From: an archaeon
GTDB lineage: Archaea > Aenigmatarchaeota > Aenigmatarchaeia > QMZP01 > JAFGSV01
Direction of reading: 5' to 3'
DNA: 64,000 nt
Assembly (NCBI GenBank): GCA_028279705.1
Contig: JANQNF010000005.1
Location: forward strand, 2,688-66,687
Every line of letters starts with the position of its first letter. The first letter of the stretch is position 1. Below the pieces are notes generated by a model, which was not told the DNA's origin, made no database searches, and saw only the letters and a program-made list of their open reading frames with translations. The translations under genes and the position numbers were made by a program. Shown one piece after another: positions 19,885 to 40,723 of the stretch.

Positions 19885-19896
19885 CTAAATTCTCCT

Positions 19897-21065: not shown

Positions 21066-21110
21066 TGTTATCTCCTCATGTAACTGACCAGCATAGCGGT
21101 GAAGATAATA

Positions 21111-21653: not shown

Positions 21654-21656
21654 CAC

Positions 21657-21826
21657 TCATCCTCCTGTACTGTTTGAAACTCAGCAACCAACCGATTGCA
21701 CTCAGGTAGGAAACAGAATAGCTTCAGTATCCCACCCTCATGCATCTCGGCACGTAACGGAGCAGATGTGTGGCAGACTGACCTGAGATGTGCAGGAAAG
21801 TCACCACACAGTTCACAACCATCCAT
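21657..21826 (-). CDS. Small Cys-rich (zinc-ribbon-like) protein, absent from the ORF track
   Basis: 56-aa ORF MDGCELCGD...CFLPEC. Its ATG overlaps the upstream TGA (ATGA). RBS AGGAGG of the next gene lies at its 3' end. Confidence 0.35.
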
Positions 21827-22140
21827 CAATTGAACTCCTTCATGTCAATGGCTGACCCGTCAAAGTCGCTATCAACCTCAAGCAACTTGTGGGTCAAGCC
21901 TGCTATGAAACGGAGGCCAGCGTCAGTGATCTTTTGTGGACCAATGTGGGAAACCAGGACCGATGCTACAAACGATTCCAACAGCAGCATCTGTTCACCT
22001 AGTTCCCAGTCCTTGAACTCACCTTGCCGAACCTCATCAAGCCATGCCCTAACCTTGGGGATCAGGAACTCGTTGGCTTGCCGTGATCTTTCTTTACCTA
22101 TGCTTCCGTCTCTTTCCATTATTCTTCTCCTTTCGACCAA
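21826..22140 (-). CDS. Hypothetical protein
   Basis: 104 aa. Confidence 0.45.
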   Translation of the reverse strand: MVERRRIMERDGSIGKERSRQANEFLIPKVRAWLDEVRQGEFKDWELGEQMLLLESFVASVLVSHIGPQKITDAGLRFIAGLTHKLLEVDSDFDGSAIDMKEFN

Positions 22141-22934
22141 GTTGCTTCGTAGTCTTCTTCAGTGATACGCATGTTCTCGATGACCTCACCGTCCATCCAA
22201 GCATTCCAGGACTTCAGGAACCAATAGATCATTGTTGTAGATGTTACCTTCTCCTTAGCATTCTTGTTCTTAATCAATCTTTCACGGAGAAGGTAAATAG
22301 GTGAAGCTTTCTTCAGGTTGTCCCCCTTCAGTACTCCATGGTAAAACTCGTCAGCGAAGTCCCTGTCAATTCTTCGGCAGATAAGATACATACCTGCCAT
22401 GAGGCCTGGAGGACCCACTGAATTGTTAGCACACGCTGATGCTACAAACTTGACATCGCTCTTCATACGTCGGTACACCTTCAGTCCTTCAGTCAAGGAA
22501 ACCTTCTGTCTGCTGGCTTCCCCGGTTGCACCTTTGTGATACCGTGAATAGTTGTTCACCGCAGCAGCAGCGATAGCCCAATTAGAAACACCTTCAATGG
22601 CCAAGGCATCGGCAAGTGTTCTTCCCTTACCTTGGTCTAGTGAACGGAACGCATCAGGGTGAACGTTGTAGGCTGTGAAGAACGTCAACGGCTTACCAAG
22701 GGCAATCAGCATACCTAGTCGGTGCTGACCATCCACCAAGTTCCCTTCAGCATCAAACTTGAGGGTATCCCCATTGTCTTCTACCCACTCACCAGCACGG
22801 TAGTCTTTCACCAACGTAATAACCCATTTCTCCTTATAGGGTCGATTACAGTGATTGCGGTTGGCGAGGATATCCTTTGCCTCGCTTACGGTGTAGCGAA
22901 CTTTCTTCGCGTTGAGTTTACTACTCATCTTCAA
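22119..22934 (-). CDS. ParB/sulfiredoxin-superfamily protein with DGQHR motif (DndB-like / ParB-like nuclease domain)
   Basis: The LVDGQHRLGMLIA motif is characteristic of DGQHR/ParB-N-terminal domain proteins. 271 aa. Confidence 0.55.
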   Translation of the reverse strand: MKMSSKLNAKKVRYTVSEAKDILANRNHCNRPYKEKWVITLVKDYRAGEWVEDNGDTLKFDAEGNLVDGQHRLGMLIALGKPLTFFTAYNVHPDAFRSLDQGKGRTLADALAIEGVSNWAIAAAAVNNYSRYHKGATGEASRQKVSLTEGLKVYRRMKSDVKFVASACANNSVGPPGLMAGMYLICRRIDRDFADEFYHGVLKGDNLKKASPIYLLRERLIKNKNAKEKVTSTTMIYWFLKSWNAWMDGEVIENMRITEEDYEATWSKGEE

Positions 22935-23340
22935 ACCTCATAAGAGTAACGATTTCGTTTTCAACAATGGACCCCCAACCAAGCTTCTTAATAGAAACCA
23001 GTTCGTGAGCCCGAGCAACCCACTGTCCGTGTCCTTGAACAGCAGCGTCTCGGTTTTCGTAGCGTTGAACAGGATGAGCACCCTGCTTATCCACAATTGC
23101 AGTTTCGTACCCAACGTCGCTTGTAAGAACTGTTGAGACAACCAACCCTGAGGTAACGTCCTTCCCAACAACTTCCTTAGGACCCTGCAACATACGTTCC
23201 GATGTGTCTAGTAGCATCTCTAGACCCTCTTCAAACACAGTCCTATGCTCCTCTTCTGTTAGGTTTTCCTTTTTAGCTAGGTTCCCGTAGCTTTCTTCAT
23301 CCTTACGTTTACCTGACATAGACAAGCTCCTGTATTGCAC
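22921..23340 (-). CDS. Hypothetical protein
   Basis: 139 aa; acidic N-terminus. Confidence 0.45.
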   Translation of the reverse strand: MQYRSLSMSGKRKDEESYGNLAKKENLTEEEHRTVFEEGLEMLLDTSERMLQGPKEVVGKDVTSGLVVSTVLTSDVGYETAIVDKQGAHPVQRYENRDAAVQGHGQWVARAHELVSIKKLGWGSIVENEIVTLMRFEDE

Positions 23341-25168
23341 GGGTTCGTGCTACGTAAATAAGGTTCATCTCCTGTTCTTTCTGCCAGTCACTGGAAGCCA
23401 TTGGATGAGGCATCTCGGCACCTTTCGGTTCCAAGATAAATACCCTGTCCGCTTCCAACCCCTTAGCACGGTGAACACTACTCAACCGTATGCCATCAGT
23501 TTCATCAGTGAAAATAGCGTGAATGCTATCAATCACTTCCTGTATGCTGTTTACATCCCTGCAAAACACCAACAGACACTGATATCTATCCTGTAAGGAA
23601 ATCAACCGAGATTCCCTTGGAGTCTTACGTTCGTTTTCAGCCTTGACCTCAGCTTCGTACCATTCCTTGGCACGTACCTTGAGATCACCAACTCCTAGAG
23701 GTCTAAGGCTTTTCACTAGGTTAACCAAGCCATCACCGATATCCCTACCGATAATCCTGGCCTTTCGCTTCGCCCTAATAAACCTCAAGCACTGGCTGAC
23801 CAGTGGAGCATTCACCCTACTAAGGATCATGTCCTCCGGTCCAACGTTGCGGTGATACCTGTCCCCGTCGTACACATCCCCTGTAACGTTGCCTTCATGC
23901 GCATCCGGCATAGCATGAAAGTCTGGGACGATGTGAACTACTTCGCCCACGATACGCTTCCCACATCTGCGGGTAACGTTGAGCGGCAACACTTCACAAC
24001 CACGGTCGGTGGTTTCCAAGTAGCTTTGCATCCGCGGGATACTGGTAACGTCAGCACCAGCAAATCCATAGATGGCTTGCTTAGGATCACCACACAGGAT
24101 CAACCTTCGGCCTGCACGCTTGGCCAACTCCTGTTGGCACCGGTTCAGGTCTTGGGCTTCATCCACCAATAACAGGTCGAACGGATTAATCTTAAGATCC
24201 AGTACCACTGGTAACCAGATCATATCGTTGTAATCCATACGACCGTCAGCAGGATTCTTACACCGCTCAAGGATAATTGGCACCAACTCGTAGATGTCCC
24301 TTCGGTACTTACCGAGGTCCACATCGTAGTGAGCCACCAAGTTATCCAGCGCTGTGTAGAACGCTGGTGAAGTATAGTCAACCAAGTTCAGTTTACACAA
24401 CCGAACCAAGGATTCCGTACCTGTAACCAGATCGGGCTTACTACGGCGAAGGATGCGGATATCTTCTTCTAGCTCTTCGCTAATAAAATCCGCAACCCTA
24501 CCATTGTCAAGTTCCAACTGGCCAAAGGCTTTGACAATCGCCCTACGTCCAAGACTGTGCATGGTCATCGCAGCGCAGTTCTTCGGCACCTTGGCTTTCA
24601 ACTCCATAGCCACCGATTTGTTAAACGCCACGAACCCGGCACTACTAGACGCGGGCGACTTACACATTTCCTCCCAGATAGCAGCTTGCTGATCACTCGG
24701 AGTAATGCTGACAGGAAAGCCTTTCACCTTCTTCAACCCTTCGATGAGGGTAGTTGTTTTCCCCGTACCTGCACGGGCAACAACGATAAGGTGTGAGGCA
24801 TCATCCTTCTTCTGTTGACTGGCTTTCAGGTTAGCCAGCCATCTACTGTTAACATCCTCAACGTCCTCTTGAGTCATGTTAGCAGGTCTTTCCACAACAG
24901 GTTCTTCTTCCTTGTATACCTGCGAAAGGAGCAAGTCAACCACCTGATCCTTAAGTAGCCTGCCAGCACCACGAATACCGTGGAACGATACCAGCTTCTT
25001 AAGGTCCGCAGCAGTCTGCAATTCCAAGTACTCCTGAAGCTCGGCACGATTGGTAATCGTTTCGATGACCTCGTGGAGCTTCCTGCTCGCTGTGTGGCTC
25101 CTTACTCTTTGGATCTGCTTGGCCATTCGGTACCTCCTTTCTCCCCAAGAGCCTTGACGACTTGCCAC
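23309..25168 (-). CDS. UvrD/Rep-family SF1 DNA helicase
   Basis: Motifs I VVARAGTGKTTTL, II LLVDEAQD, III LCGDPKQAIYGFAGA, V HRAKGLEADRVFIL and VI YVARTRA. Confidence 0.85.
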   Translation of the reverse strand: MASRQGSWGERRYRMAKQIQRVRSHTASRKLHEVIETITNRAELQEYLELQTAADLKKLVSFHGIRGAGRLLKDQVVDLLLSQVYKEEEPVVERPANMTQEDVEDVNSRWLANLKASQQKKDDASHLIVVARAGTGKTTTLIEGLKKVKGFPVSITPSDQQAAIWEEMCKSPASSSAGFVAFNKSVAMELKAKVPKNCAAMTMHSLGRRAIVKAFGQLELDNGRVADFISEELEEDIRILRRSKPDLVTGTESLVRLCKLNLVDYTSPAFYTALDNLVAHYDVDLGKYRRDIYELVPIILERCKNPADGRMDYNDMIWLPVVLDLKINPFDLLLVDEAQDLNRCQQELAKRAGRRLILCGDPKQAIYGFAGADVTSIPRMQSYLETTDRGCEVLPLNVTRRCGKRIVGEVVHIVPDFHAMPDAHEGNVTGDVYDGDRYHRNVGPEDMILSRVNAPLVSQCLRFIRAKRKARIIGRDIGDGLVNLVKSLRPLGVGDLKVRAKEWYEAEVKAENERKTPRESRLISLQDRYQCLLVFCRDVNSIQEVIDSIHAIFTDETDGIRLSSVHRAKGLEADRVFILEPKGAEMPHPMASSDWQKEQEMNLIYVARTRAIQELVYVR

Positions 25169-25329
25169 AAACTGTCGAGAACACCAAGCATCCTTTTCTG
25201 TCTTTGGGTGTTCTCTACATCATTGTCTATAGCTTCCACATTAGCCCGCAAGGTATCTATGTCCCTGCGAGCGAAAGTCATGAGTTCCAACCCTTCCTTT
25301 TGCAGAAGCTCCTCTTTACGTTGATTCAT
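25102..25329 (-). CDS. Hypothetical small protein
   Basis: 75-aa ORF; overlaps the helicase 5' end by 66 nt; start uncertain. Confidence 0.3.
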   Translation of the reverse strand: MNQRKEELLQKEGLELMTFARRDIDTLRANVEAIDNDVENTQRQKRMLGVLDSLWQVVKALGEKGGTEWPSRSKE

Positions 25330-25646
25330 CGTATTCTAAACTCCTCTCCTTGTCTGGTGTCAAACAGTTCATAACACACCCAACAGGTCACGATGAGACA
25401 TGGTACTCCTCCGGGTATGATCATCACCACCCAACAGACGTACTTGAGCGGTATCTCAATCCATGTCTCATCGTAGTTAAGATGGACAAGGTTCCAGGCT
25501 GTGATGCCCAGAAAGATGGTGAACAAGCCAGCAAACAACAGGACAGAGTTAATCGCTATCCATTTGTAGTTGAACGGCTTGCCCGGTATCATTGACTTAT
25601 ACGTCATTACTCCTCTCCTAACGTGTTTGTAACCAAGGTTCAGCAA
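25326..25646 (-). CDS. Hypothetical membrane protein
   Basis: Two hydrophobic segments (AINSVLLFAGLFTIFLGI; VCWVVMIIPGGVPCLIV). Confidence 0.4.
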   Translation of the reverse strand: MLNLGYKHVRRGVMTYKSMIPGKPFNYKWIAINSVLLFAGLFTIFLGITAWNLVHLNYDETWIEIPLKYVCWVVMIIPGGVPCLIVTCWVCYELFDTRQGEEFRIR

Positions 25647-26643
25647 CAGTCTTCACGTAGTACGGTGCTTGGATCTTAATTCCGTTGAACTCGTACTCGT
25701 GTTCAGTCAGCGGCACGCTTCCATCATAATACTTGGCCAACGTCACATCGGTCAAGTCATCGATCTGGAAGTATCCACGACGCATCCACGGACAGTAGTG
25801 GTGATGAGTATGCTTCGCTGGAAGCGTACGATACCGTAACTTGAACGGGTTGCTAGGATCGCCTGGGACCGGGTGTTCAAAGGTAATGAACACGAACGGG
25901 TCTTTCGGTAGGTACAGCATATCCAACTCTTGCCGTGCTTTCACTCCGGCAAAGTAGATAGCCATCATTTCCAACCAATCTTCTCCGGGGTAGATCTTGG
26001 AGTACAGACTGGTATAGTGTTTGATCTGGTCCTCAGTAAACGGCTTCCAGATCAACTGGTTGTGCTGTTCACCCTGTAACAGATCCTTCATTGGACCTAC
26101 TCGTGCCGAGGCAGTACGGTAGAACTGAGTAAGATCATCACCGTAGTCCCCTTCGAAACATACGTACGAATCCTCAAGCATGGTTTCCACCAATACTCTT
26201 AAGGACAGCGCGTAGTGCTCCACGGCTTCTACCTCCGCTTCCATCAAATCCTTTTGGCCTCGGCCGAACAACCACACATCAGCTAGGTTCTCAGCACGGA
26301 ACGTGAACTCCGCCCTTACACCGTAGTCAGCCAGTGTTTGCTGGAGACACTGTAATTGACGAACGGCGAAGAACTCCAACAGGTCGATACCAGCACCTTC
26401 CTCTTGCTTGCGTGCTGCAAACGGAACAAAGAACCGTATGACCTCGTCGTTATCACGGATCACGTTTCTAATTTGTACCTGTACCTCCGGGACAGGCATC
26501 GGGCCGAACCGACGTTGCTTGGTTCCAATGATTTCCCCTGCGATGGCATCAAGCCGAACAGAGGTCTTCACCCCACTAACGGGGAACGCGCTGTATAGCG
26601 CCTGATCAACTAGATCCTCATAGGTACTACCCATTGTTCTCAC
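25618..26643 (-). CDS. Hypothetical protein, 341 aa (largest unknown in the early block)
   Basis: Long ORF with no recognisable motif; His cluster HTHHHYCPW near the C-terminus. Confidence 0.55.
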   Translation of the reverse strand: MRTMGSTYEDLVDQALYSAFPVSGVKTSVRLDAIAGEIIGTKQRRFGPMPVPEVQVQIRNVIRDNDEVIRFFVPFAARKQEEGAGIDLLEFFAVRQLQCLQQTLADYGVRAEFTFRAENLADVWLFGRGQKDLMEAEVEAVEHYALSLRVLVETMLEDSYVCFEGDYGDDLTQFYRTASARVGPMKDLLQGEQHNQLIWKPFTEDQIKHYTSLYSKIYPGEDWLEMMAIYFAGVKARQELDMLYLPKDPFVFITFEHPVPGDPSNPFKLRYRTLPAKHTHHHYCPWMRRGYFQIDDLTDVTLAKYYDGSVPLTEHEYEFNGIKIQAPYYVKTVAEPWLQTR

Positions 26644-27139
26644 TCCAGTGTTGATTTCTGATTTCCGGGTTAAAGCTCCCTACCTTCTTGGCATGGATAC
26701 GAACAAGTCCAGGAGATTCCGGACTAACTTCCCAAGGCTCATCCCACTCCGTAACCTGAGGAATCAGGTCTCTCATAGCCTGTAGCTCCTGCTCATTGGG
26801 CGCACGAACATACTCGCTCTGCTCAGCGCCGTCTCTCTGAACAGAACCGTTGACAGTCCAGATCAACTCATTGTTATCCCCAACTGGTTCCTTGCCAACC
26901 ATGACACGGAGTTGACCGTCGGGCACGTCACAGACATAACGTACTAGGAACGCACCACCGATTGTCATGTGTTGGAGGATCATTTCCGGCGGGGATGAGA
27001 TAGGATGTAGTACCACCCTACTCATCTCCTTCTGTGTGAGATCCTGGTACTTCCTGGCCAACAGCCGCAACGTGACAACGTTGCTAGTGTCGCGAATGGT
27101 TTCCTGGTCCTTGATAAATTCAGCATCACTGATCTTCAT
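26627..27139 (-). CDS. Hypothetical protein
   Basis: Start moved to the MKISDAEF ATG at 27139, which has an AGGAG RBS 7 nt upstream. Confidence 0.45.
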   Translation of the reverse strand: MKISDAEFIKDQETIRDTSNVVTLRLLARKYQDLTQKEMSRVVLHPISSPPEMILQHMTIGGAFLVRYVCDVPDGQLRVMVGKEPVGDNNELIWTVNGSVQRDGAEQSEYVRAPNEQELQAMRDLIPQVTEWDEPWEVSPESPGLVRIHAKKVGSFNPEIRNQHWSENNG

Positions 27140-27422
27140 GAATAGTCTCCTGTGTCCAAAATTGAGGAGGATTCTTACTTTGCCAGTCCTCCACCATATC
27201 TGAAAGCGCACCGTTCACCGCCGTGGTGAACTCCAACATACGCTCATTGTCAGGGGGTCCAACCTTACGTATCTGGTTGGATGTCATCCCGTGGTTTGCG
27301 AGATCAATAAACTCTACGAACTTACGGATCTCAATAATTGCCGGGTCTTCCTGGTACACGCTATGGTACAGATTCCACAACCATCTGGCAGTAGCCTTTG
27401 CATTGAGGGGGATCATGTTCAT
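27126..27422 (-). CDS. Hypothetical protein
   Basis: 98 aa. Confidence 0.45.
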   Translation of the reverse strand: MNMIPLNAKATARWLWNLYHSVYQEDPAIIEIRKFVEFIDLANHGMTSNQIRKVGPPDNERMLEFTTAVNGALSDMVEDWQSKNPPQFWTQETIHEDQ

Positions 27423-27721
27423 AGCTTACCCCTCAGGTTTTCCAAGAACTTGAGGATGCCGTGGGCCTCCCCAAAGTCCCCTTCACAAGCCTCAACCAAC
27501 TTGGCACCAACTTCCAGCCTGTCTTCGGTCAGGATGGCTTGCTGATAGATGGGATCACCACCTGTCTTCCTACGATGGTTGGACATGATGGTGCTGACGT
27601 ACTGAGGAGACACCTCCAGCCCTGCTTCAGTAGCAGCCTGTGCTACTTCCTTAGGTTTGGCATCTGGGTTGTCCTCCATGTAATCCCGTATCCACTCAGA
27701 CTTGTTCGTTTCGCTCATCAC
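27419..27721 (-). CDS. Hypothetical protein
   Basis: 100 aa; ATGA overlaps on both sides. Confidence 0.45.
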   Translation of the reverse strand: MMSETNKSEWIRDYMEDNPDAKPKEVAQAATEAGLEVSPQYVSTIMSNHRRKTGGDPIYQQAILTEDRLEVGAKLVEACEGDFGEAHGILKFLENLRGKL

Positions 27722-28005
27722 CGAGCTCCTGTAGCAAGCTTGGCAATCTCTGGGATAGATACCAATAGGTAATCAAGCGTGAAGAACAAGGCAACAGGTT
27801 CCCAGATTTCCTGTTGTGTTTCGACCAGGACTTCATAACCCTTGGCCGGTTTCCTACGTTCTACACGCACGGTCAACCCCAACAACTCTTCAAGGCTGTT
27901 GTGGTCGGGGGTCATTTCGTTAAGGATAACCAGTTCATCACTGGTCATGCTCTCGGGTGCCAACCCCAATACATGGCACACTTTTTCAAGGTCACCGACG
28001 TACAT
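27718..28005 (-). CDS. Hypothetical protein
   Basis: 95 aa. Confidence 0.45.
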   Translation of the reverse strand: MYVGDLEKVCHVLGLAPESMTSDELVILNEMTPDHNSLEELLGLTVRVERRKPAKGYEVLVETQQEIWEPVALFFTLDYLLVSIPEIAKLATGAR

Positions 28006-28007
28006 AG

Positions 28008-28253
28008 TCAGTCCCTCCTAAAATGGTTGTTGATCCAATACAAACCGAACACCAACAGGAGTATTGAGAATACAGCGTATGTCATTACATTCCCAATCTC
28101 CTGCGATGTCCAGTACTCAGCCAGCAGTATTCTCATCATCCCTTTCCTCCTTTTCTGGACACAACACCTGTACGAACAACAACAAGCACAAACATTGTAG
28201 GAACAACACGCTTGGTTCCCACGGCTCATGGGTCCAGGACCTAATTGTTCCAA
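28008..28253 (-). CDS. Hypothetical small membrane protein with Cys-rich N-terminus
   Basis: CCSYNVCACCCSYRCC, then the TM segment YAVFSILLLVFGLYWI. Confidence 0.4.
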   Translation of the reverse strand: MEQLGPGPMSRGNQACCSYNVCACCCSYRCCVQKRRKGMMRILLAEYWTSQEIGNVMTYAVFSILLLVFGLYWINNHFRRD

Positions 28254-28324
28254 TTAGAAAGTATGCGACTGCGCAGCTATTAACAAGTAGTTTACCTCCC
28301 ATATCAAACCACGCCTTCAATTCA

Positions 28325-28636
28325 TCATTCACTTAATTCCTCCTGTGCTTCTGTTGCTAGTTCCGTAATGGTCTTTACAAAACTGTTAACCAGATGTATC
28401 CTCTCCAAAAGAGGGATACCACATTTACCGAACCAGTCGTACATCTGTTGGCCCAACTCAGAGTCAAGCAGATTGAACATTCCGAAATGAACATCATGCT
28501 CCTGCATCTGGTTCTTACCGCTAGCTTCCACCTCAGACTTGACCTCGCCTATGTCCAGCAGGTTGCATCGGTGCTCAATAGGGTTGATTGATATGGCTAC
28601 CCATATCTCCGTAGGTTCAGGTCTGTTAGCTACCAT
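28325..28636 (-). CDS. Hypothetical protein
   Basis: 103 aa. Confidence 0.45.
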   Translation of the reverse strand: MVANRPEPTEIWVAISINPIEHRCNLLDIGEVKSEVEASGKNQMQEHDVHFGMFNLLDSELGQQMYDWFGKCGIPLLERIHLVNSFVKTITELATEAQEELSE

Positions 28637-29432
28637 CCGTTACTCCTTCCAATTTACGCCTCAATATATGAAGCTCGTGCTGTATGCTCTCACGGTCCTC
28701 AGCGTGCAGGTTAGGATCCCGCAGCTCACTGAGCATACTTTCCATTTCCTGGTGACCGTCGCACTTCCTACGTGCTGTACCGCGGATCACCTTACCATCG
28801 ATTCCGTTCTCACTACAAACACCGCACACCTTTCCATCGCTGTGTGACGTCATTCCACAATACGCACAATCCCTGTGCTTCTTAGGAAGTACACAACCAC
28901 AAGGAGCCTTCTCCTTTGCTAAGGCTTTCTTCTCCTCTTGGTCAGCAATCCATTCCGCCTGACGCTTGGACTCACCATCCACCAACGTTCGGCCACTCGG
29001 CTTATGATATACCTCCCAGGAATACAGGTCGTCGCCGTATCCTCTTCGTACACCATAATGCTTCCTTACTGGTTTACGTGGTTTCCTGTTCTTGCTAACG
29101 CGCCCTAGCCTTGGTCGTGCCAGCGCTGCCTCCTTACGTGTCTTACAAGGACCAGCCACAACTTCCCACAACAAGCCTTTCCGCTTGTCCTTGGGATCAC
29201 GCTTGGTTCCTGCAATCTTGTACCACTCTCCGCGCTTGCCAGCAATACGGCACATCATCTTCATACGGGGTCGGCCTGCAAGGTGCGATACCACGTAGTA
29301 GCCGATTACCCTATACACATCATACACGTTGACAAACCGCCGGTCACTCTTGCTGATGCTCTTCGCCCTGTGAGGCTGTAAGAACTTCAGTTCAATCTTC
29401 TTGTGTGGTAGTAACGTCATGGCCCACCTCAT
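28626..29432 (-). CDS. Arg/Lys-rich protein with C-terminal multi-Cys zinc-binding region; possible degenerate GIY-YIG-like nuclease
   Basis: NVYDVYRVIGYYVV...R...E is reminiscent of the GIY-(10)-YIG..R..E layout. C-terminal CGC...C..C...CGVC...C..H cluster. Confidence 0.4.
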   Translation of the reverse strand: MRWAMTLLPHKKIELKFLQPHRAKSISKSDRRFVNVYDVYRVIGYYVVSHLAGRPRMKMMCRIAGKRGEWYKIAGTKRDPKDKRKGLLWEVVAGPCKTRKEAALARPRLGRVSKNRKPRKPVRKHYGVRRGYGDDLYSWEVYHKPSGRTLVDGESKRQAEWIADQEEKKALAKEKAPCGCVLPKKHRDCAYCGMTSHSDGKVCGVCSENGIDGKVIRGTARRKCDGHQEMESMLSELRDPNLHAEDRESIQHELHILRRKLEGVTDGS

Positions 29433-29772
29433 TACTTACATAGTAAATTCTAGTTTCATCCCAAGTGAATTCAATCCTATATCGGTGCTCGTACATAAAA
29501 CTGAATTCCTGATCACTTATATAAGTGTCCGCACCTTGATGCAACCACCATAAGTTCTTTTCTTTATTCGTATTACTCAACATGCTGATCAAGGCTGTGT
29601 AGTCAATGATCATGTTATCCATGTTTTTCAGACGCTCTTCAGCACCTTCACCCGAACGGTACACATTGAACAACGCTTGCCAGATCTTACGCATACGTTG
29701 TTCAAAGCTTCCATCACGTGTGTGGGAAATGACCAAGTAGATCACCCCCTTCTTAATCGGTTTCATTTTCAT
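29392..29772 (-). CDS. Hypothetical protein
   Basis: 126 aa. Confidence 0.45.
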   Translation of the reverse strand: MKMKPIKKGVIYLVISHTRDGSFEQRMRKIWQALFNVYRSGEGAEERLKNMDNMIIDYTALISMLSNTNKEKNLWWLHQGADTYISDQEFSFMYEHRYRIEFTWDETRIYYVSNEVGHDVTTTQED

Positions 29773-30007
29773 TCCCCCGTAAATGTGCTTGGAGTTCTTC
29801 TACGACCTCAGGTCCAAGGTCGTGAAAGTATAGTTCACACATAATAACCACCAAAGCTTCCAGCTTGGTCTGATCACGTATTAGATCCCTGATGAGATCT
29901 ATTGTTGCTTCGTTGGCCTTCCTCTGTTGGATCCCTTGGTGGACAGTCATCAACTGCTGAGTCATAGGGAACACCAACATAACCAGGATCAATACCCACA
30001 GCATCAC
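29753..30007 (-). CDS. Hypothetical small membrane protein
   Basis: N-terminal TM segment MMLWVLILVMLVFPM. Confidence 0.4.
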   Translation of the reverse strand: MMLWVLILVMLVFPMTQQLMTVHQGIQQRKANEATIDLIRDLIRDQTKLEALVVIMCELYFHDLGPEVVEELQAHLRGNENETD

Positions 30008-30252
30008 ATCACCTCGTGATACATCCAGTAGATGGCTTCTTCAAAATCACGTGCCGTGAACTCCCTACCCGACTCTTTCAAATCAGGGATAAGGGTGTTC
30101 TGTAAGTACGCAATAAACGCCTCCATACTTTCAAACTCAGGCACCCTTAACGGGTCCTCAGCCTCAGCAGCATGGATACTTTCTGCGACCTCGCCAAACG
30201 GCACATCACGCAATTGTTCGCGCTTACGCATTCCACGGTTACTACTCATCAC
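30004..30252 (-). CDS. Hypothetical small protein
   Basis: 82 aa; ATGA overlap. Confidence 0.4.
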   Translation of the reverse strand: MMSSNRGMRKREQLRDVPFGEVAESIHAAEAEDPLRVPEFESMEAFIAYLQNTLIPDLKESGREFTARDFEEAIYWMYHEVM

Positions 30253-30612
30253 TCACTCCGGGATTGGAATAAAGGGGAGCTTCTCGTTGATCAGCAAACA
30301 GATCCTACAATGGGTCATGTTGCACGGTTCATGTAAGGCAGATAGCTCCTTACGAAGGTCACGGATGAGCAGGTACGCTCTCCACAGTATTTCGGCGTCG
30401 GCTAATTCCCCACCCCAAGGAGAAGGAGGATCGGTCTCCCATATAACCTCCTCGTGGCGAGCATCCATCATCCCTAACCAAGCACTCTCATCCCCGTATA
30501 TTTCCTTACATAGGTCTTCAATATTTGTTGACATGTCAGTCCTCAAAGAGTTGGGTGTAGTTGTTGATTTGAGTTGCTGCAACGTGCAGGTTCTCTTCAC
30601 TCCAGTCCGCAC
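30253..30612 (-). CDS. Hypothetical protein
   Basis: 119 aa. Confidence 0.45.
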   Translation of the reverse strand: MRTGVKRTCTLQQLKSTTTPNSLRTDMSTNIEDLCKEIYGDESAWLGMMDARHEEVIWETDPPSPWGGELADAEILWRAYLLIRDLRKELSALHEPCNMTHCRICLLINEKLPFIPIPE

Positions 30613-30907
30613 CTGCCATCAGGTATTGATGCCAGTGTGTTCGGTGAGCCTTCCTCAGCAAATCCCCTTTGCCTTGGAACACGATCCACGCCTTGGTTGC
30701 ACCAACAACGTGGATTTCGTCGGATGGCAAATTCTTCAACTCCTGCACACCCAACGTAGGCATCTGCTCAAGGAACTTTGCCTTGATGGTTTTGACCTGG
30801 ATTAGCTCACGGTCATCCACAGCCGTTACAACACGAACACCGGTTTTGGTTTTGATATCACTACTCATTATCTTCCTCCCAGAAAAGGGTATGGTACTCG
30901 TTTTCAC
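30536..30907 (-). CDS. Hypothetical protein
   Basis: 123 aa; overlaps the downstream gene by 77 nt, so the start may be later. Confidence 0.4.
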   Translation of the reverse strand: MKTSTIPFSGRKIMSSDIKTKTGVRVVTAVDDRELIQVKTIKAKFLEQMPTLGVQELKNLPSDEIHVVGATKAWIVFQGKGDLLRKAHRTHWHQYLMAGADWSEENLHVAATQINNYTQLFED

Positions 30908-30943
30908 TTACGATCGTTTCAATGGGTGCTTTCTGGGGAGAAG

Positions 30944-31276
30944 CTACATGGAGCGTACTTCAGTACTGAACCCCAGTGCCCACATCCCCCGAACAGTAAC
31001 AGGAGGTGAAATCCCGTTGATAAAGATGCCAGCAGCCATTGCGTTAGGGAATTGAATCCCCATTGTGCCCACTTCCCATTCATCCGGCCACTTATCGCCG
31101 TTGAGGTGTATCTCCACCCCATGTGCGTCACACACAATTAACGTCTGCTCATCCACGATACGGAATATAGGGTCGTCTCCATTAGGGAACCTTTCAGCCC
31201 CTTGGAACCCATCCCACATACCATCCGTAAACGGAGTTGCTTCTGCGTGCAAATGATTTCCACTACTCATTTTCAT
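30944..31276 (-). CDS. Hypothetical protein; first gene of the leftward early block
   Basis: 110 aa. RBS GGAAGGAG upstream of the ATG at 31276. Confidence 0.45.
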   Translation of the reverse strand: MKMSSGNHLHAEATPFTDGMWDGFQGAERFPNGDDPIFRIVDEQTLIVCDAHGVEIHLNGDKWPDEWEVGTMGIQFPNAMAAGIFINGISPPVTVRGMWALGFSTEVRSM

Positions 31277-31354
31277 TCTCCTTCCAACACGGAATCTAAA
31301 ACGAAATCAAAACCGAATACAAAAATAAAGTCTTCAACACCAACACGATATTGA

Positions 31355-31402
31355 AAACACAAAATCCAAAATCTTCAATCCAAAAACCCAATTCCAAAAA
31401 TG
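31355..31402. repeat. Phased A-tract repeats (A)ATCCAAAA(A) x3
   Basis: aatccaaaatc / aatccaaaaac / attccaaaaat at ~13-nt phasing, just upstream of the leftward operon. A curved-DNA / UP-element-like region. Confidence 0.5.
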
Positions 31403-31476
31403 ACTTCCGGTGCTCAAAACTGGGTATTCCATTTTCTCAGAGTTCCTCTACCTACCCCTCACAAGGGGGTGTGCAC

Positions 31477-31569
31477 TTCCGCACAGTGCCCTTCCGCACA
31501 CCACCTCATCGGGGGGTGTCAATTCCGCACATGTGCTCCACACGCACACTTCCGTGCCAATACCGCACG
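31477..31569. repeat. Iteron cluster TTCCGCACA x3 plus two variants
   Basis: ttccgcaca at 31477, 31492 and 31523. Variants ttccgtgcc at 31550 and accgcacg at 31562. Confidence 0.5.
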
Positions 31570-31692
31570 TTTCCATTGTGGGCTCCATATTTCCATTTTG
31601 CCGCTATGTGGAAAAATCTGCTCACTATAACTATTCATTTCCAGCGCGCGCCATCCACAAGCGATTTTAGCGGTTAGCAAAGGGAAAACTCC

Positions 31693-31706
31693 ATATATCG
31701 CACCTG
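31693..31706 (+). promoter_or_regulatory. Copy of the 14-bp motif (ATATATCGCACCTG)
   Basis: Matches the copies at 17343 and 17473. Confidence 0.45.
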
Positions 31707-31926
31707 CCGCGCTTTACAGCCAAACGGGGTATATAGCAGGCCAGCCAGTACAGGCCACTAGGGGCGATATTTGCCCTGCCAGCGACCGGGCTGTTGGCCA
31801 GCCACTAGGCCAGCACAGCCAGCCAGCGCAACCCCTAGCAGGTTGCCAGCGTAATATCGTACAGGCTTGCGCACAGTCGCACAGCTATCGCGTTTTTTGC
31901 GCCCCTGTACTTTGTATCGGCTGGCC

Positions 31927-31951
31927 AAAAATCGCACCACGTGCGATATTT
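31927..31951. promoter_or_regulatory. Inverted pair of the 14-bp motif (aaaatcgcacc-acgt-gcgatattt)
   Basis: The two half-sites are reverse complements. A degenerate minus-oriented copy lies at 31764-31775. Confidence 0.45.
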
Positions 31952-31978
31952 GCTGGCCTGTTGCCAGCGCATAAAAAT

Positions 31979-31997
31979 AGCCCGGTAAAACCGGGCT
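31979..31997 (-). terminator. Rho-independent terminator for the 32021..32323 gene (possibly bidirectional)
   Basis: AGCCCGG-tAAAA-CCGGGCT stem-loop. On the minus strand it is followed by a UUUUUA run. 23 nt downstream of the gene. Confidence 0.6.
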
Positions 31998-32020
31998 AAT
32001 GGGCTATTTTTCGTTTTTTC

Positions 32021-32323
32021 CTATTTTCCACAATTGGGGCAAGCGCTTTGGCACCCGGTTTGCAAGGGCAATTCCACGCGCCCACAATGCGGGCAAAGGT
32101 TTTCCAACCAGCCTGTTAGGCTGGCCAATGTGTTAGCCTGTTTGGCTTGCCGTGCTGTTAGGCCAGTACGCAATTCCATAGCCTGTAGGCTTGCGCTATA
32201 CCCGTTAAGCATTTCCAGCAAGTTTTCCAACGCGCTGTACTGGTTGGGGGGTGCTACTTGGTTTTCAATAGCGCCTAGCAATACCTGTGCAAAGTGCTTT
32301 GCAATGTTATTGGTGTTGGCCAT
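32021..32323 (-). CDS. Small protein with C-terminal zinc ribbon (CPHCG...CPNCG)
   Basis: ATG at 32323 (MANTNNIAKHF); a longer alternative start exists at 32374. Has its own terminator. Located in the control region. Confidence 0.5.
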   Translation of the reverse strand: MANTNNIAKHFAQVLLGAIENQVAPPNQYSALENLLEMLNGYSASLQAMELRTGLTARQAKQANTLASLTGWLENLCPHCGRVELPLQTGCQSACPNCGK

Positions 32324-32417
32324 GTTTTGCCCTTGTGTTAGGGGGTGTTGTGGTTGCCTGTTACGTACATACATTTTAGCAACCTGTTAGCCCCTTGCAA
32401 GGCCAGCCAACACGTAA

Positions 32418-32434
32418 TTTCCACTTTGTGGAAA
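32418..32434. promoter_or_regulatory. Perfect palindrome TTTCCAC-TTT-GTGGAAA (candidate operator)
   Basis: 17-bp perfect inverted repeat. Related TGGAAA/TTTCCA sites recur across 31570-31620 and 33614-34520. Confidence 0.5.
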
Positions 32435-32497
32435 ATAGTTGGCTACTAGCATTTTCCATACCAATAGCAAACAATTTTCAACAAAGCACATAAAAAT

Positions 32498-32520
32498 AGC
32501 CCGGTTTTCCTAACCGGGCT
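32498..32520 (-). terminator. Rho-independent terminator for the 32547..32873 gene (bidirectional shape)
   Basis: AGCCCGG-ttttcctaa-CCGGGCT, flanked by ataaaaat and gttttgg. Confidence 0.6.
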
Positions 32521-32546
32521 GTTTTGGTTAATTGGTTGGCTGGCTA

Positions 32547-32873
32547 CTAGCTTTCCTCGCCACCGCGTAAATCGTACCCGCCGTTTTTGTTGGCATGGGC
32601 AATGGTTTTCCGCCCTTGTGGCGTAATGCTGTAGTAGGTTGGGCTGTCCGCACCGCTTTCCAATTCGTATGCGGCGTCCGCCATATTGCCCAATTCCACT
32701 TCCTCGTCGCAAGTTGGCTTGCAACCGTGGCTTAGGTTAATGCCATCGCGTATTTCGCTGGCAGTGCTTTCGCCGTTTTTGGCCACAAATTCCAAAATAC
32801 GCAAGCGTACGGTTTTGGCCTTGGCCTTGGGTGCGGTGGACTTTTTGGCGGTTTTGCTTTTTGCTGTTTTGGC
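32547..32873 (-). CDS. Lys/Ala-rich (histone H1-like tail) winged-helix DNA-binding protein
   Basis: RBS GAGGAG 7 nt before ATG 32873. N-terminus AKTAKSKTAKKSTAPKAKAK, then RLRILEFVAKNGESTASEIRDGI...YYSITPQGRKTI (wHTH-like). Confidence 0.6.
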   Translation of the reverse strand, partial: AKTAKSKTAKKSTAPKAKAKTVRLRILEFVAKNGESTASEIRDGINLSHGCKPTCDEEVELGNMADAAYELESGADSPTYYSITPQGRKTIAHANKNGGYDLRGGEES

Positions 32874-33117
32874 CATTGTTTGGCTCCTCAATAAAACAGG
32901 TGTAACGGGTTGGCCTTTTGCGGCCTAGCTGCCAACAACGTGTTGGCCACTGTTAACCAATATAGGATAAAAACGGCTGTAGGCAATAGCAGGCTACACC
33001 CATTTATCCATTTTTGCCAAAGTATTTTGGATAGCTGGACCTAAGTGCTGTTATAGCAATAGGTTAGGCGCATAGATTATTTTTGCCCTGTACTGGCCAG
33101 CCAGCCAATTTCTACCA

Positions 33118-33344
33118 CTAGCAGGGGGTGTGTAAGCACCGCAAGCCAGCGCTAGCCAGTGGATTTTGATAGGATTTTTCCTTACTGTTAGTAGTTTGGA
33201 AATTGTTATAGTAGGTTTCCAGCGCAGTAAATTCCTGCTCCAGCACCCAACCAAGCGCGTTATTTTCTTTTCCATAACTACGGGTTGCAACTACGGTCCA
33301 TCCATTACGCGCTGTTATGCGTACACCTTTTTCACTAGTGGCCA
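33118..33344 (-). CDS. Hypothetical small protein (weak)
   Basis: 75-aa ORF from the MATSEKGVRITARNGW ATG; weak RBS; within the non-coding-rich control region. Confidence 0.25.
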
Positions 33345-34153
33345 TTTGTACACCTATACCCAACACGGGCGCTAAAGGTTTATCCAACACGGAAAACAAA
33401 CGTTAGCGCGCTAATGCCATTGCAACTATACAAACGTACACTAGCGCGTTGAACAATTGTTTTCACAAACTGTTAACCACCGCTACACTTTGCCGCACAC
33501 ATACCCGCGCTCATTGTATTGTTAGTTGGCAGTGCGCTCCATACTGGTTTTGCGCGTAGCACTTGTGTTCCATTTTACCCGGCAAAACACGGGGTAAAAT
33601 CAACACCAATTAAGTATGGAAAACATAGCGGTTAGGTTACTTAACCACAAACAACAGTACGCATTGAAAACCGTTTGGCCAAACAAGCGTAGGCCAGCAC
33701 TGTTCCCGCAGTGCGCGTAACGGTTGCGCTGTTGTTAATGGGTTGCAATGTTCCTGTGCCATTGCTCCGCATAGTAGGTTGTGTGTTACCTGTTCGCTAT
33801 GCGTTAAGCACCTACACTGTAAGCGGGTATTGAAACCAACTAACCGTATGCAACATGGTTTTCAATAACCACTGGTTGCAACTAAAGCTTTACTGGCTGT
33901 TTTACGCTTTCCACGTGTAGCCTGTATACCAACACCAACACGGCGCAGCATACGTTTCCCCGTATAGCCACGGGGTAGGGTTAGTAGGTTGCCAAAGAGC
34001 AGCATAACATTATAGGTATAACACCCCCTATAGCAAGGCCAGCACGGCAATATAGCAAGCCAGTACAATATCGGATAAAAGGGGCCAAATATCGGATTTA
34101 AGCTACTTTAGCGGCAAATACGGGGTTACCACGGCTTTTTGGTTAGCACGCAC

Positions 34154-34168
34154 CAGGTGCGATATTTA
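34154..34168 (-). promoter_or_regulatory. Minus-oriented copy of the 14-bp motif (rc: TAAATATCGCACCTG)
   Basis: caggtgcgatattta. Confidence 0.45.
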
Positions 34169-34190
34169 CCCCCTTGTTGTCGGTTTTGCC

Positions 34191-34236
34191 TGTATATGTA
34201 TATATAATATATATTTACCATTAAATCCGCTAACCG
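34191..34236. promoter_or_regulatory. AT-rich element (candidate DNA-unwinding element)
   Basis: tgtatatgtatatataatatatatttaccattaaat; about 85 percent AT, against ~48 percent for the window. Confidence 0.4.
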
Positions 34237-34627
34237 TATAGGACCTAAGTTGTTGATAATAAAGTACTTACAGCTACAAGTGGAACATTGTATAGCATAC
34301 TAGCGCCTTCCATATGGAAAAGTGGATACTTGTTATCCTGTAGGGAAAAGTGTTATATGGAAATGGAAAACATACTAACTTCCACATAGTATACTAATGG
34401 AAAACGATATAACTACTTTCCATAGGTGGTGTGCGTTTACAAATCCAAAGCTCAATTTCCACGTGTGGAGCGCAGGGTAAAGTATTTTTCATATAGGGAA
34501 TCCTACACATGAAACACGTATGGAAGTAGTAGTTCAATACTTTTGTTCCATACAGCTAATAACTGTTATGCTTTCGGTTAGGTTTGATGCGATATGTACG
34601 TTATTCACGGGAGTTTTACCCGAACAC

Positions 34628-34656
34628 TTGCCAAGCCTGTCCAGATAGGGTATTAT
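34628..34656 (+). promoter_or_regulatory. Sigma70-like promoter for the rightward late block
   Basis: -35 TTGCCA, 17-nt spacer, -10 TATTAT. 52 nt upstream of ATG 34708. Confidence 0.4.
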
Positions 34657-34707
34657 TTTGACTGTTTTGGTTTCAGCCGATTAATCCCGTTAATCCCGGA
34701 GTAACAG

Positions 34708-34920
34708 ATGGCTAAGAAGGAAAAAGTCAAGATCGCAGTCAACGCTGATACCGTGAGGAATGGTATCTATGCAGCAACCGATATCGGTCGTAAGGATGTC
34801 AAGCATGTCACAGGTACTATCCTGGAGGATATGGGAGACACTATTGCCAAGGTCAAACTCGACAGGGATGGGGATGATCTGGCCAACACATACAATCTAC
34901 GAAAGGAGTGGCTGATCTAA
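34708..34920 (+). CDS. Hypothetical protein
   Basis: RBS GGAG. 70 aa. First rightward gene. Confidence 0.5.
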   Translation: MAKKEKVKIAVNADTVRNGIYAATDIGRKDVKHVTGTILEDMGDTIAKVKLDRDGDDLANTYNLRKEWLI

Positions 34921-39121: not shown

Positions 39122-40723
39122 ATGGGACTAGACAATACCAGCAAGAAGCTCCAGGAAATCCTGGCAGATCCAGTACGTTTCACAAAGATGTGCTGGCCAA
39201 AGATCAAGCTCTACGATCGTCAGCAAGAAGTTCTTTATTCTGTACGAGACAATATTGAAACGTTCGTACACGCTGCTAATGAAGTGGGTAAGGACTTTAT
39301 TGCCAGTATCGCGGTCGTGTGGTTCTATGCCAGCCGGACTCCATGCAAAGTCGTAACCAGCAGTTCTGGTGAAACCCAACTCAAGTCAATTCTCTGGGGA
39401 GAAATAAACGAGCGCATAGAAACCAGCCGGTTTGAGTTTCCTTTTGAAGTCAAAGACCTACGCATCTACAAGGTTAATTCAGAAGGAAAGAGAGATCCCA
39501 GGTCGTATGTTATTGGGCAAGTGACCAAGGTAGTTGAAAACTTCCAAGGACATCACTTACCTCATGACAAGCCCAGAGTCCTTGCTGTGTTTGATGAAGC
39601 CTCTGGTATTGCTGACCCGTTCTATGAAGCTTGTGAATCATGGGCACACAGGAAGTTGATTATTGGTAACCCGCTCAGCACAACCAACTTCTTTTTCCGA
39701 GGTTGCAAGAAAGGTGATGAGGAAGACCCTGCTGAAAGCGGTGGATTGCTGAAGAAGGTAATTCATATTGACGGCTTAGATAGTCCGAATGTCAAGGTCG
39801 GTAAGAAATGTGAGGAGCTCGGTGTTAAACGGCCTCACCCGATTGTTGTTCCTGGTGTGCTCAGCTACGATGAATACCTACGACGTTCACACAAGTGGGA
39901 TCACGTCAAACGAACCATGCGACTGGATGGACACTTCTACGAAGGTGAAGGAGCCTTACTATTCCCACCTGACTGGTTAGACCTGTGTGAAGAACTGTAC
40001 AAGATCCTCAACCCTTATGGCTACGATACACCCTACAGGAGAGTCATCAACGGCGAAACCCGGAAAGCCAAAGGTATGGGAGTTGACACCGGTGCTGGAC
40101 GTGACTTATCCTGCTGGAGTATTGTTGACAAGCTGGGACTAATTGAACAGATAACGTTAGAAACACCCAACACAATGGAAGTCGCGTCACAGACCATCAG
40201 CCTGATGAGGGACTACGATTTGGAACCCCATGAAATCGTGTTTGATGCTGGTGGTGGAGGTAAGCAGATATCCGACCGGCTAATTGAACAAGGATATAAC
40301 GTTCGTGCTGTGTACTTCGCTGGTTCCCCAAGTCCAGAACGTACCAAGAAGAAGTTATCCACGGCCGAAAAGAAGGATGATGACCAGACCAAACAGGTGT
40401 ACAAGAACAAGCGAGCTGAGCTGTACGGTATAGCCAGCGAACTGTGTGATCCGGGATTGTGCGAAGAATACAATCGTCCTGTGTTTACAATCCCAGAAGA
40501 CCTATACCATTTGCGCCAAGAACTTGCTATAATGCCGAAGCAATACGACAGCGAAGGCAGAATGTTTTTACCACCGAAAGAACGACCTCCCGGTAACAAG
40601 AACCCTGATCTGGTTGTTATTAAGGAAATACTTGGAAGAAGTCCAGACCGTGCAGACAGTCTTTGTTTAGGAATGTATGCTATGGAAGAGTCTGGAGCAC
40701 CACGAGTAGCAGGAGCAGTGTAA
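39122..40723 (+). CDS. Terminase large subunit (ATPase + RNase H-like nuclease)
   Basis: Walker B-like VLAVFDEASGI. C-terminal nuclease segment VFDAGGGGKQ. 533 aa; follows the small subunit. Confidence 0.85.
   Translation: MGLDNTSKKLQEILADPVRFTKMCWPKIKLYDRQQEVLYSVRDNIETFVHAANEVGKDFIASIAVVWFYASRTPCKVVTSSSGETQLKSILWGEINERIETSRFEFPFEVKDLRIYKVNSEGKRDPRSYVIGQVTKVVENFQGHHLPHDKPRVLAVFDEASGIADPFYEACESWAHRKLIIGNPLSTTNFFFRGCKKGDEEDPAESGGLLKKVIHIDGLDSPNVKVGKKCEELGVKRPHPIVVPGVLSYDEYLRRSHKWDHVKRTMRLDGHFYEGEGALLFPPDWLDLCEELYKILNPYGYDTPYRRVINGETRKAKGMGVDTGAGRDLSCWSIVDKLGLIEQITLETPNTMEVASQTISLMRDYDLEPHEIVFDAGGGGKQISDRLIEQGYNVRAVYFAGSPSPERTKKKLSTAEKKDDDQTKQVYKNKRAELYGIASELCDPGLCEEYNRPVFTIPEDLYHLRQELAIMPKQYDSEGRMFLPPKERPPGNKNPDLVVIKEILGRSPDRADSLCLGMYAMEESGAPRVAGAV

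Follow-up and report, generated by a model that had tools for sequence, protein, structure and literature searches.

The most remarkable property of the 3.4-kb region that separates two divergent gene blocks in a tailed phage of ~74.8 kb is the purge of one dinucleotide, GA/TC, over 2.6 kb of genes and non-coding DNA alike. The phage was analysed through a stretch of 64 kb (64,000 nucleotides of contig JANQNF010000005.1, called here the window), in which genes are directed rightward at 1-18722, leftward at 18759-31276 and rightward again from 34708. The gap at 31277-34707 had been placed between the leftward and the rightward block in a first-pass annotation, and the genes on both sides of it confirm this position (Table 1). 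It is a genuine divergent control region of the phage. Within it lies a compositional island (31655-34240), where GA and TC are found 90 times instead of the 324 times expected from base composition, an observed/expected ratio (o/e) of 0.28. In 1108 other segments of equal length, the GA/TC o/e has a mean of 1.09, a standard deviation of 0.043 and a minimum of 0.94. The purge is unique within the window and within a further 8.6 kb examined. The first-pass annotation had overlooked both this island and a weaker second element at 17200-17640.

The island contains three small leftward open reading frames (ORFs A, B and C). Avoidable GA/TC amount to 0.03-0.09 per codon in these ORFs, as compared with 0.19-0.47 in every other gene; the codons ATC, CTC, GTC, AGA and CGA are absent from them, and Ser is nearly always encoded by AGC. 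Such a purge at synonymous sites points to selection or a long equilibrium at the level of the nucleic acid, not to protein composition. The non-coding DNA of the island (1793 nt) is purged as strongly as the synonymous positions, with 57 GA/TC where ~244 would be found at the bulk rate, and the eight trinucleotides containing GA or TC are the eight most depleted ones in this non-coding part (ratios of 0.05-0.39). The GC content of the island is unchanged at 0.48, and its excess of the dinucleotides GC (1.6) and TA (1.17) is an arithmetic result of the removal of GA/TC. Hypermutation by a TC-to-TT deaminase was rejected on these two grounds. Avoidance of restriction sites was also rejected as the cause, since what is purged is a dinucleotide, and GGCC, GCGC and CTAG abound in the island. 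The GA/TC sites that remain are not randomly distributed. GGAA accounts for 25% of them (TTTCCA/TGGAAA motifs, p=5e-4) and CGAT for 19% (GCGATAT/ATATCG boxes, p=1e-4), and others lie in Asp/Glu codons; 33% of TC in the region is found within TTCC, as against 9% elsewhere. The two strands also differ in extent. TC is purged from the minus strand at 31405-34300 and from the plus strand only at 31650-34300, the minus-strand (sense) purge being the stronger and further-reaching of the two.

The anatomy of the region and the purge are direct readings of the DNA; the rest of the explanation is one that we infer. At 2350-17199 the window holds what looks like a complete toolkit for thymidine hypermodification through 5-hydroxymethyl-2′-deoxyuridine (5-hmdU), the enzyme activities being assigned from family membership. 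Its 5-hmdU DNA kinase is ~36-41% identical to the proteins of M6, PaMx11, Ab18 and PhiJL001. For the transferase that would add the final group, no family match was obtained with 6046-7221 or its neighbours. The phage very probably carries 5-hmdU in place of T and hypermodifies thymidines, as judged from these genes. Phages with this set of enzymes exchange T for 5-hmdU and afterwards hypermodify part of the positions. It is known that the conversion of 5-hmdU to a hypermodified base is sequence-specific (PMC5889632). Restriction sites that resist cleavage have TG or TC in common (PMC6449724), and phage SH-Ab 15599 is modified at TG and less at TC (PMC13458397). Modification of T at TG/TC has been reported for phage M6. 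The specificity for TG/TC is ascribed to the kinase (PMC6449724, PMC13458397, PMC5889632). M6, ViI, PhiW-14 and SH-Ab 15599 resemble the phage described here in that the kinase (PF18723), a thymidylate-synthase homologue, a radical-SAM enzyme and enzymes for exclusion of thymidine triphosphate occur in all of them. The sites modified in those phages are set by a dinucleotide, TG or TC (PMC6449724, PMC13458397).

The reading that we prefer, tentatively, is that the region is a divergent regulatory hub whose core is kept free of TC-directed modification, so that operator-type motifs alone carry it. The leftward operon would have its operators and promoters in one outer flank (31277-31650) and the rightward operon in the other (34300-34707), and the island between them would hold ORFs A-C, all small and leftward, together with ~1.8 kb of non-coding DNA rich in motifs. 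Selection would have removed TC from the island on both strands, which reads as a loss of GA/TC. If the kinase family directs hypermodification of thymidine to TG or TC, the island would stay nearly free of TC-directed modification and could be read by the host RNA polymerase, by regulators and perhaps by DnaA. The leftover TC, found in operators of the TTCC type, in ATATCG boxes and where Asp/Glu codons make it unavoidable, would then be the sole modified or targeted positions. A symmetric TC purge on both strands is the expected look of a zone without TC-directed modification of double-stranded DNA. Among 6-bp palindromes expected at least six times in the bulk of the window, the ten with the lowest o/e all lack TC/GA and five of the ten contain TG/CA, a weak hint that TC, not TG, is the protected context. 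A further and rather improbable idea is that the genome is hypermodified at TC and the control region is TC-free except for TTCC-type operators, ATATCG boxes and iterons. The bulky base might then belong to the code that phage regulators recognise, or be a timer that tells incoming modified DNA from newly replicated DNA, and the early genes of a sister lineage, which are free of TC on the sense strand, would be a second sign of a TC-centred conflict.

Several observations weigh against a modification-free hub. The palindrome comparison is not significant overall (Mann-Whitney p=0.27), and the purge itself is the sole ground on which TC is taken as the modified context in this phage. No local zone depleted of the target dinucleotide has been described in M6, ViI, PhiW-14 or SH-Ab 15599, and no comparable island was found in three other phages with the 5-hmdU kinase that were compared (M6, PhiJL001 and SH-Ab 15599), suggesting that hypermodifying phages do not generally need a modification-free zone. 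In SH-Ab 15599, for which modification at TG is experimental, the minimum TG/CA o/e is 0.89 as compared with a median of 1.19, and no local depletion was seen in PhiJL001. ORFs A-C are without identifiable function in Pfam, PHROG, homologue and structure searches, and we know of no reason why 2.6 kb, coding sequence included, should stay unmodified. Moreover, the closest relatives of the phage (L005 and L013) deplete TC on the sense strand only, sense-strand GA being normal, which modification of double-stranded DNA does not predict. As a separate observation, M6 (L001) has a mild CA/TG depletion at 3100-3800 (0.66, median 1.02), with CC/GG and TA raised, which is small in comparison with the island.

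The two relatives were compared in more places. L005 has a large terminase (TerL) 75% identical to that of the window and the same divergent architecture, and its central region is non-homologous, homology beginning only at window position ~37865. L013 has a PolA that is 61% identical, and the same kinase/radical-SAM cluster. The sense-strand TC depletion extends over 1-4800 and 8800-21364 in L005 and throughout L013. In the early genes of L005, TC o/e is 0-0.2 (0-4 per 400 nt), and elsewhere it is 0.4-0.55; many early genes of its leftward block carry no more than a single TC on their coding strand, and its rightward (structural) genes, like all genes of L013, show values of ~0.4-0.55. Genes of the L005 type keep the codons AGA, CGA and GGA. 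Three small genes in the L005 early block (2287-2580, 3810-4001 and 4092-4223) are unpurged, indicating that both compositional classes circulate in the phage group. To our knowledge, no cause has been described for TC depletion confined to the sense strand. In more distant relatives by TerL (51-56%: L009, L011, L012 and L076-L078), GA/TC is normal and no island was found. The central part of L005 (5000-7400) has a TA o/e of 0.2-0.5 as compared with ~1.0 in the rest of that locus, with GA/TC normal, the opposite contrast to that of the window.

As for the genes of the island, ORFs A and B are real genes. On the coding strand of ORF A, TC is absent and 6 of the 7 GA fall in Asp/Glu codons at codon positions 1-2 (p=0.007). 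ORF B has one TC, and 15 of its 16 GA fall in such codons at the same positions (p=8e-7). This confinement of GA supports the coding status of both. ORF C shows a weaker signal than A and B (6 of 9 GA at positions 1-2, p=0.04), and that it is coding is only moderately supported. The three ORFs sum to 861 nt, so that the region is ~25% coding and ~75% non-coding, not ~85% non-coding as estimated before, and ORF B ends at 32876 instead of 32873. The product of ORF A is predicted to be a helical protein with a CxxC...CxxC zinc ribbon at its C terminus, and that of ORF B has a basic, Lys/Ala-rich N-terminal tail followed by a weak winged-helix signal (18.5 bits, below the cutoff of 27). In homologue searches, ORF A gave repetitive low-complexity proteins only, none of them credible, ORF B matched only itself, and ORF C was without result. 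Pfam and PHROG scans of ORFs A-C and their neighbours yielded nothing usable beyond the sub-threshold winged helix of ORF B, and no match to the HTH_3, CI or Cro families. AlphaFold, run on single sequences, gave poor models of ORFs A and B (predicted local distance difference test scores of 61 and 55), and Foldseek found no match for them in the PDB at E ≤ 0.001. The hairpin downstream of ORF A may be a bidirectional terminator. ORFs A and B each have a promoter-like site upstream, and another is located at 34036-34009 (minus strand), ~650 nt upstream of ORF C; sigma-70-like promoter matches in the region are at chance level (6 vs 5.9).

The first-pass annotation had called the region a transcriptional control hub. 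This is reasonable, and TGGAAA/TTTCCA dyads in the outer flanks by the starts of both divergent operons (31590-31615, 34308-34319 and 34397-34423), the motif CCAACACGG upstream of all four leftward genes, and the promoter-like sites and terminators speak for it, although the dinucleotide purge had no place in that account. The unpurged outer flanks look like real divergent operator/promoter regions. CCAACACG(G), upstream of all four leftward genes, occurs seven times in the region and once elsewhere. The reported enrichment of two motifs holds at 6-7-fold: GCCAGC/GCTGGC occurs 19 times in the region and 44 times in the other 60.6 kb, and TGGAAA/TTTCCA 23 and 62 times, respectively. Other elements needed adjustment. 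The 17 bp at 32418-32434, described as a perfect palindrome, form an inverted repeat of the 7-3-7 type, TTTCCAC-TTT-GTGGAAA, in which the 3-nt spacer is unpaired, and the A-tracts described as phased are spaced by 5-14 nt (7- and 14-nt units), not by 10-11 nt. The duplicated 13-mer TTTCCACGTGTRG is exact at 33908, and its second copy lies at 34456, not 34457. A switch of the lambda OR type would have symmetric operators in several copies over promoters placed back to back; dyads are present here at 31590-31615, 32418-32434, 34308-34319 and 34397-34423, with promoter matches at chance, and no adjacent repressor- or Cro-type helix-turn-helix gene was found by Pfam and PHROG.

The second element, at 17200-17640, begins with the same 34-nt sequence as that at 31405 (17200-17233; two matches in place of none expected by chance), and in both places a C/G hairpin follows downstream. 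Boxes of GGTGCGATATTT are present in this element and on the 31405 side. With a GA/TC o/e of 0.56, 17200-17640 contains the only other 300-nt segment below 0.6 in the 64 kb. Two copies of the element with a shared low GA/TC suggest a family of elements resident in the genome, which the purge accompanies. A 135-amino-acid ORF listed at 17184-17591 is probably spurious. A scan of viral contigs with the 34-nt element gave no match. In metagenome contigs, 61 matches were obtained and set aside, all of them having an 8-nt spacer and lying inside unrelated conserved sequence, mostly of human-gut origin.

Table 1. Features of the control region, the second element and genes named in the text (window coordinates; toolkit enzymes and regulatory sites are predictions)
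Feature	Position	Strand	Remarks
PolA	2350-4404		Toolkit cluster
5-hmdU DNA kinase	4388-5275	plus	PF18723, E = 9.4e-51
Radical-SAM/SPASM enzyme	7794-8690		
Thymidylate-synthase homologue	8674-9825		Deoxyuridine monophosphate hydroxymethylase type; PF00303 1.4e-19; phrog_5131 2.8e-94
MazG-like pyrophosphohydrolase	10061-11098		
N6/N4 DNA methyltransferase	15503-16363		
Deoxynucleoside monophosphate phosphatase	16360-17199		phrog_318, 5e-57
Weaker second non-coding element	17200-17640	plus	Identical 34-nt start, C5/G5 hairpins, two GGTGCGA(T/C)ATTT boxes
UvrD-like helicase	23309-25168		
Last leftward gene left of region	30944-31276	minus	
A-rich leader, putative promoter-proximal flank of leftward operon	31277-31404	minus	Two CCAACACGG-type boxes (31284, 31340); composition unpurged
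Bipartite 34-nt element TTCCGGTGCTCAA-N10-TCCATTTTCTC	31405-31438	plus	Start of minus-strand TC purge
Three direct repeats	31465-31531	plus	21-nt units ending in exact TTCCGCACA; start-to-start 15 and 31 nt
Dyad TTTCCA-N13-TGGAAA	31590-31615		Contains exact TTTTCCACA at 31607-31615, minus strand
GA/TC-purged compositional island	31655-34240	both	2.6 kb, genes and non-coding DNA
Non-coding segment	31674-31831	plus	Paralogous to 17329-17484 (local alignment z = 8.5 vs shuffles); GGTGCGATAT(T) boxes, GCCAGC runs
ORF A terminator, GC-rich hairpin AGCCCGG...CCGGGCT	31976-32012		T-runs on both sides; minus-strand terminator 31998-31978
ORF A	32021-32323	minus	100 amino acids
ORF A promoter-like site	32400-32373	minus	TTGCAA-16-TAAAAT with TG
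Box CCAACACGT	32407		Upstream of ORF A promoter-like site
Inverted repeat TTTCCAC-TTT-GTGGAAA	32418-32434		Exact TTTTCCACA at 32427-32435, minus strand
ORF B intrinsic terminator	32498-32520	minus (32520-32498)	9-bp stem, 6 GC pairs, then T-run
ORF B	32547-32876	minus	109 amino acids; P0001; GAGGAG ribosome-binding site
ORF C	33118-33345	minus	75 amino acids; P0003
CCAACACGG boxes of ORF C	33360, 33384		Directly upstream of ORF C start
Right non-coding arm of island	33346-34240		~0.9 kb
13-mer TTTCCACGTGTAG	33908		Right arm of island
AATATCGGAT repeats	34067, 34088		Right arm of island
GGTGCGATATTT	34156		Right arm of island
AT-rich block	~34181-34236		Right arm of island
Right flank, putative operator/promoter region of rightward operon	34301-34707	plus	
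Perfect 12-bp palindrome TTCCATATGGAA	34308-34319		Right flank
Tandem TATGGAAA sites	within 34301-34707		Right flank
Dyad ATGGAAA-N13-TTTCCAT	34397-34423		Right flank
13-mer TTTCCACGTGTGG	34456		Right flank
Promoter-like site TTGCCA-17-TATTAT	34628-34656	plus	50 nt before first rightward gene
First rightward gene right of region	34708-34920	plus	
Large terminase (TerL)	39122-40723		

The asymmetry seen in L005 and L013 suggests that the target is on RNA or on single-stranded DNA that is exposed, and it keeps alive two explanations of the purge other than modification, an imported cassette and a host attack. Import is possible, if doubtful. In this case, the island would be an acquired module in a swap hot-spot between the two operons, keeping the composition of a TC-purged donor without any special function here. 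The central region is indeed non-homologous in L005, where it also deviates from the bulk, in the opposite direction, and TC-free and normal genes are mixed, gene by gene, in the early block of L005. The codon usage of the island is poorly correlated with that of the rest of the window (relative synonymous codon usage, r = 0.12-0.17), and its proteins are without homologues. Like phage morons, the island genes are small ORFans of atypical composition between conserved blocks, two with their own terminator and all three with promoter-like sites ahead of them; unlike morons, they have regulatory motifs in common with the resident region, and the non-coding DNA around them (1.8 kb) is just as purged. 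Thus CCAACACGG, TGGAAA dyads, GGTGCGATATTT and the 34-nt element are shared by the island with its unpurged flanks and with 17200-17640, and none of these is found in L005 or L013, which favours purging in place over recent import. However, no donor with a symmetric purge is known, as genes of the L005 type lose TC from the sense strand only, and the minus-strand purge begins at 31405, outside the symmetric island. Neither flanking repeats nor mobility genes were found at the island, and import would only shift the cause of the TC purge to the donor. Attack by the host on TC/GA is a somewhat unlikely cause. The island, with the first-expressed genes, would avoid the target of an enzyme that acts on single-stranded DNA or RNA until counter-measures have been made, candidates being a TC-specific deaminase, a DarT-like ADP-ribosyltransferase, a CmdT-like modifier of GA in mRNA, and an endoribonuclease. 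Two known enzymes have such resolution. The target of CmdT is GA in single-stranded RNA (PMC11618068), and that of DarT2, in single-stranded DNA, is the third T of TNTC (PMC11543638). They act on the same dinucleotides, GA and TC, from which a motif purge would be a plausible escape. The sense-strand TC purge of the sister lineage, near absolute in early genes and partial in late ones, agrees with RNA or exposed single-stranded DNA being the target, and in the window the purge is strongest and longest on the sense strand. Nevertheless, the purge of the island is symmetric and includes non-coding DNA, in which the purge of either strand is no weaker than in the genes, and the other 60 kb of the phage are without any avoidance. 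The retained TTTC(CA) and TATC(G) are themselves TNTC sites, so that avoidance of DarT2 is disfavoured, and the unpurged sense-strand GA of the relatives speaks against CmdT. For an artefact, either a chimeric assembly or miscalls made systematically at modified bases, it can be said that modification of the DNA is probably heavy and can bias sequencing. However, ORFs B and C are identical in the only two assemblies that represent the phage (NCBI and Logan SRR20820740; contigs of 74,881 and 74,812 nt), and these two are circularly permuted in different ways. No reading frame is broken, Asp/Glu codons are in frame, and motifs are common to both sides of the island boundary, all of which makes an artefact extremely improbable.

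A replication origin as the main function of the region, made of iterons and an unwinding element and combined with an early/late switch, is unlikely, although it would be compatible with a control hub. Many of the elements cited for it in the first-pass annotation do exist, and further ones speak for it. Exact TTCCGCACA is found three times, at 31477, 31492 and 31523, and nowhere else in the window; with one mismatch it occurs 13 times where 14.3 are expected, so that the signal is a tight cluster of exact copies, each in a unit of 21 nt, with 71-76% identity between the units. To the left of these iterons, at a distance of 65-170 nt, the flank is A-rich (67% AT at 31290-31400). All three exact TTTTCCACA sites of the window are at 31607-32435, and they are three of the seven matches in 64 kb to TTWTNCACA, gathered within 830 nt (binomial estimate, p ~0.004). 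TTWTNCACA is the consensus of DnaA boxes and TTTTCCACA is the cyanobacterial box (PMC4674748). The TTTTCCACA sites are DnaA-box-like and clustered beyond chance, and DnaA binding to them is putative. The AT-rich block, starting near 34181, holds the second most AT-rich 46-mer of the window (78% AT), the cumulative GC skew has its minimum at 33-34 kb, and a second origin could lie in the duplicated non-coding element. Iteron origins such as lambda ori and those of theta plasmids with DnaA boxes likewise combine direct repeats and DnaA-box-like sites with an AT-rich stretch, at a skew minimum. Unlike in these, the elements here are dispersed over 3 kb and form no compact unit: the iterons are just 9-nt cores with irregular spacing (15 and 31 nt), and the AT-rich block, which had been treated as their partner, is 2.66 kb away from them. 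No initiator gene of the Rep, O or TrfA type was found by Pfam and PHROG among ORFs A-C and their neighbours, the skew switch coincides with the change in the direction of transcription, and the same motifs are equally readable as operators. The purge is neither explained nor predicted by an origin or a switch. Structured non-coding RNAs as products of the non-coding parts are also quite unlikely; 17200-17640 and 31405-31975 would be their paralogous copies, with a composition that comes from constraints at the RNA level. Both copies open with the 34-nt element and a C/G hairpin, and they fold more stably than shuffled controls (z = -4.3 for the plus strand of 31405-32015 and -2.3 for 17200-17640), as does the minus strand of 33400-34010 (z = -3.0, the other strand giving -1.6). 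However, the opposite strand of 31405-32015 folds about equally well (z = -3.9), as expected of inverted repeats in DNA, and a strand-specific structured RNA is unsupported in this left arm. Similar folding of both strands fits DNA inverted repeats and long leaders, not a defined structured RNA. A scan of Rfam 15 gave no family at its gathering score, the best matches being driven by terminators (Trp_leader, 25.3 vs 41), and a tRNA scan was negative. No homologues for covariation were found in the viral and metagenome contig scans, and the purge covers protein-coding sequence as well.

Two other kinds of compositional islands may be compared with the purge. Vertebrate CpG islands retain the target dinucleotide because they are unmodified. 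The likeness is in logic only, in that a regulatory region deviates from the bulk in one dinucleotide that is a target of modification; the sign is inverted here, the phage island being without the target, and the cause would be selection, not escape from mutational decay. The first-step-transfer region of phage T5 lacks EcoRI sites. Again a local stretch of small genes of early type is without a vulnerable sequence, but what is avoided here is a dinucleotide and not a site of 4-8 bp, in a phage known only from its sequence. If the purge reflects hypermodification of the phage's own DNA at TC, the modification context of a phage that is uncultured would be readable from its sequence alone, and hypermodified DNA would need or exploit unmodified regulatory windows. 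This would bear on how the transcription and replication machineries read heavily modified phage genomes. If an enzyme of the host acting on TC/GA is the cause, the island, like those early genes of the sister lineage that lack TC, would be a footprint of a dinucleotide-specific defence that can be searched for in the host. Either way, local, strand-specific purges of a dinucleotide are a cheap signal for genome scans.

Relatives of the phage were also sought more widely. Neither the control region nor the structural genes showed nucleotide similarity to any of 50,697 phage records, and a search of viral contigs with a neighbouring protein of 384 amino acids gave no match. TerL homologues with 46-48% identity (P0061 and P0076) are annotated in Planctomycetes, namely Symmachiella dynata and a metagenome-assembled genome of Planctomycetaceae, and the relatives of the helicase are mainly from phages of Bacteroidota. 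Directly upstream of the DNA methyltransferase gene are those of a YpsA/SLOG-family protein (14588-15082) and a protein with a HicB-like antitoxin domain (15055-15552). In the 8.6 kb past the end of the window (L075 12503-14569, 17782-17988 and 21305-21865), a glycosyltransferase of 688 amino acids and a UDG-family protein are encoded, and a second short divergent intergenic region at ~L075 17782-17988 has a small GA/TC dip, to 0.49 in one 300-nt segment.

In the bulk of the window, CAGCTG and CTGCAG are missing (0 found, 13.3 and 12.2 expected, respectively), and both are avoided in the island as well. GGTACC, ATGCAT, CCCGGG and CCTAGG are nearly missing from the bulk. These gaps look like avoidance of restriction systems of the PvuII, PstI and KpnI types in the host. 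Finally, the rightward operon opens with very small proteins both in the window (34708-34920) and in L005 (7776-8120), those of L005 being extremely basic, rich in Lys, Gly and Arg, and not homologous to the product of the first rightward gene of the window.

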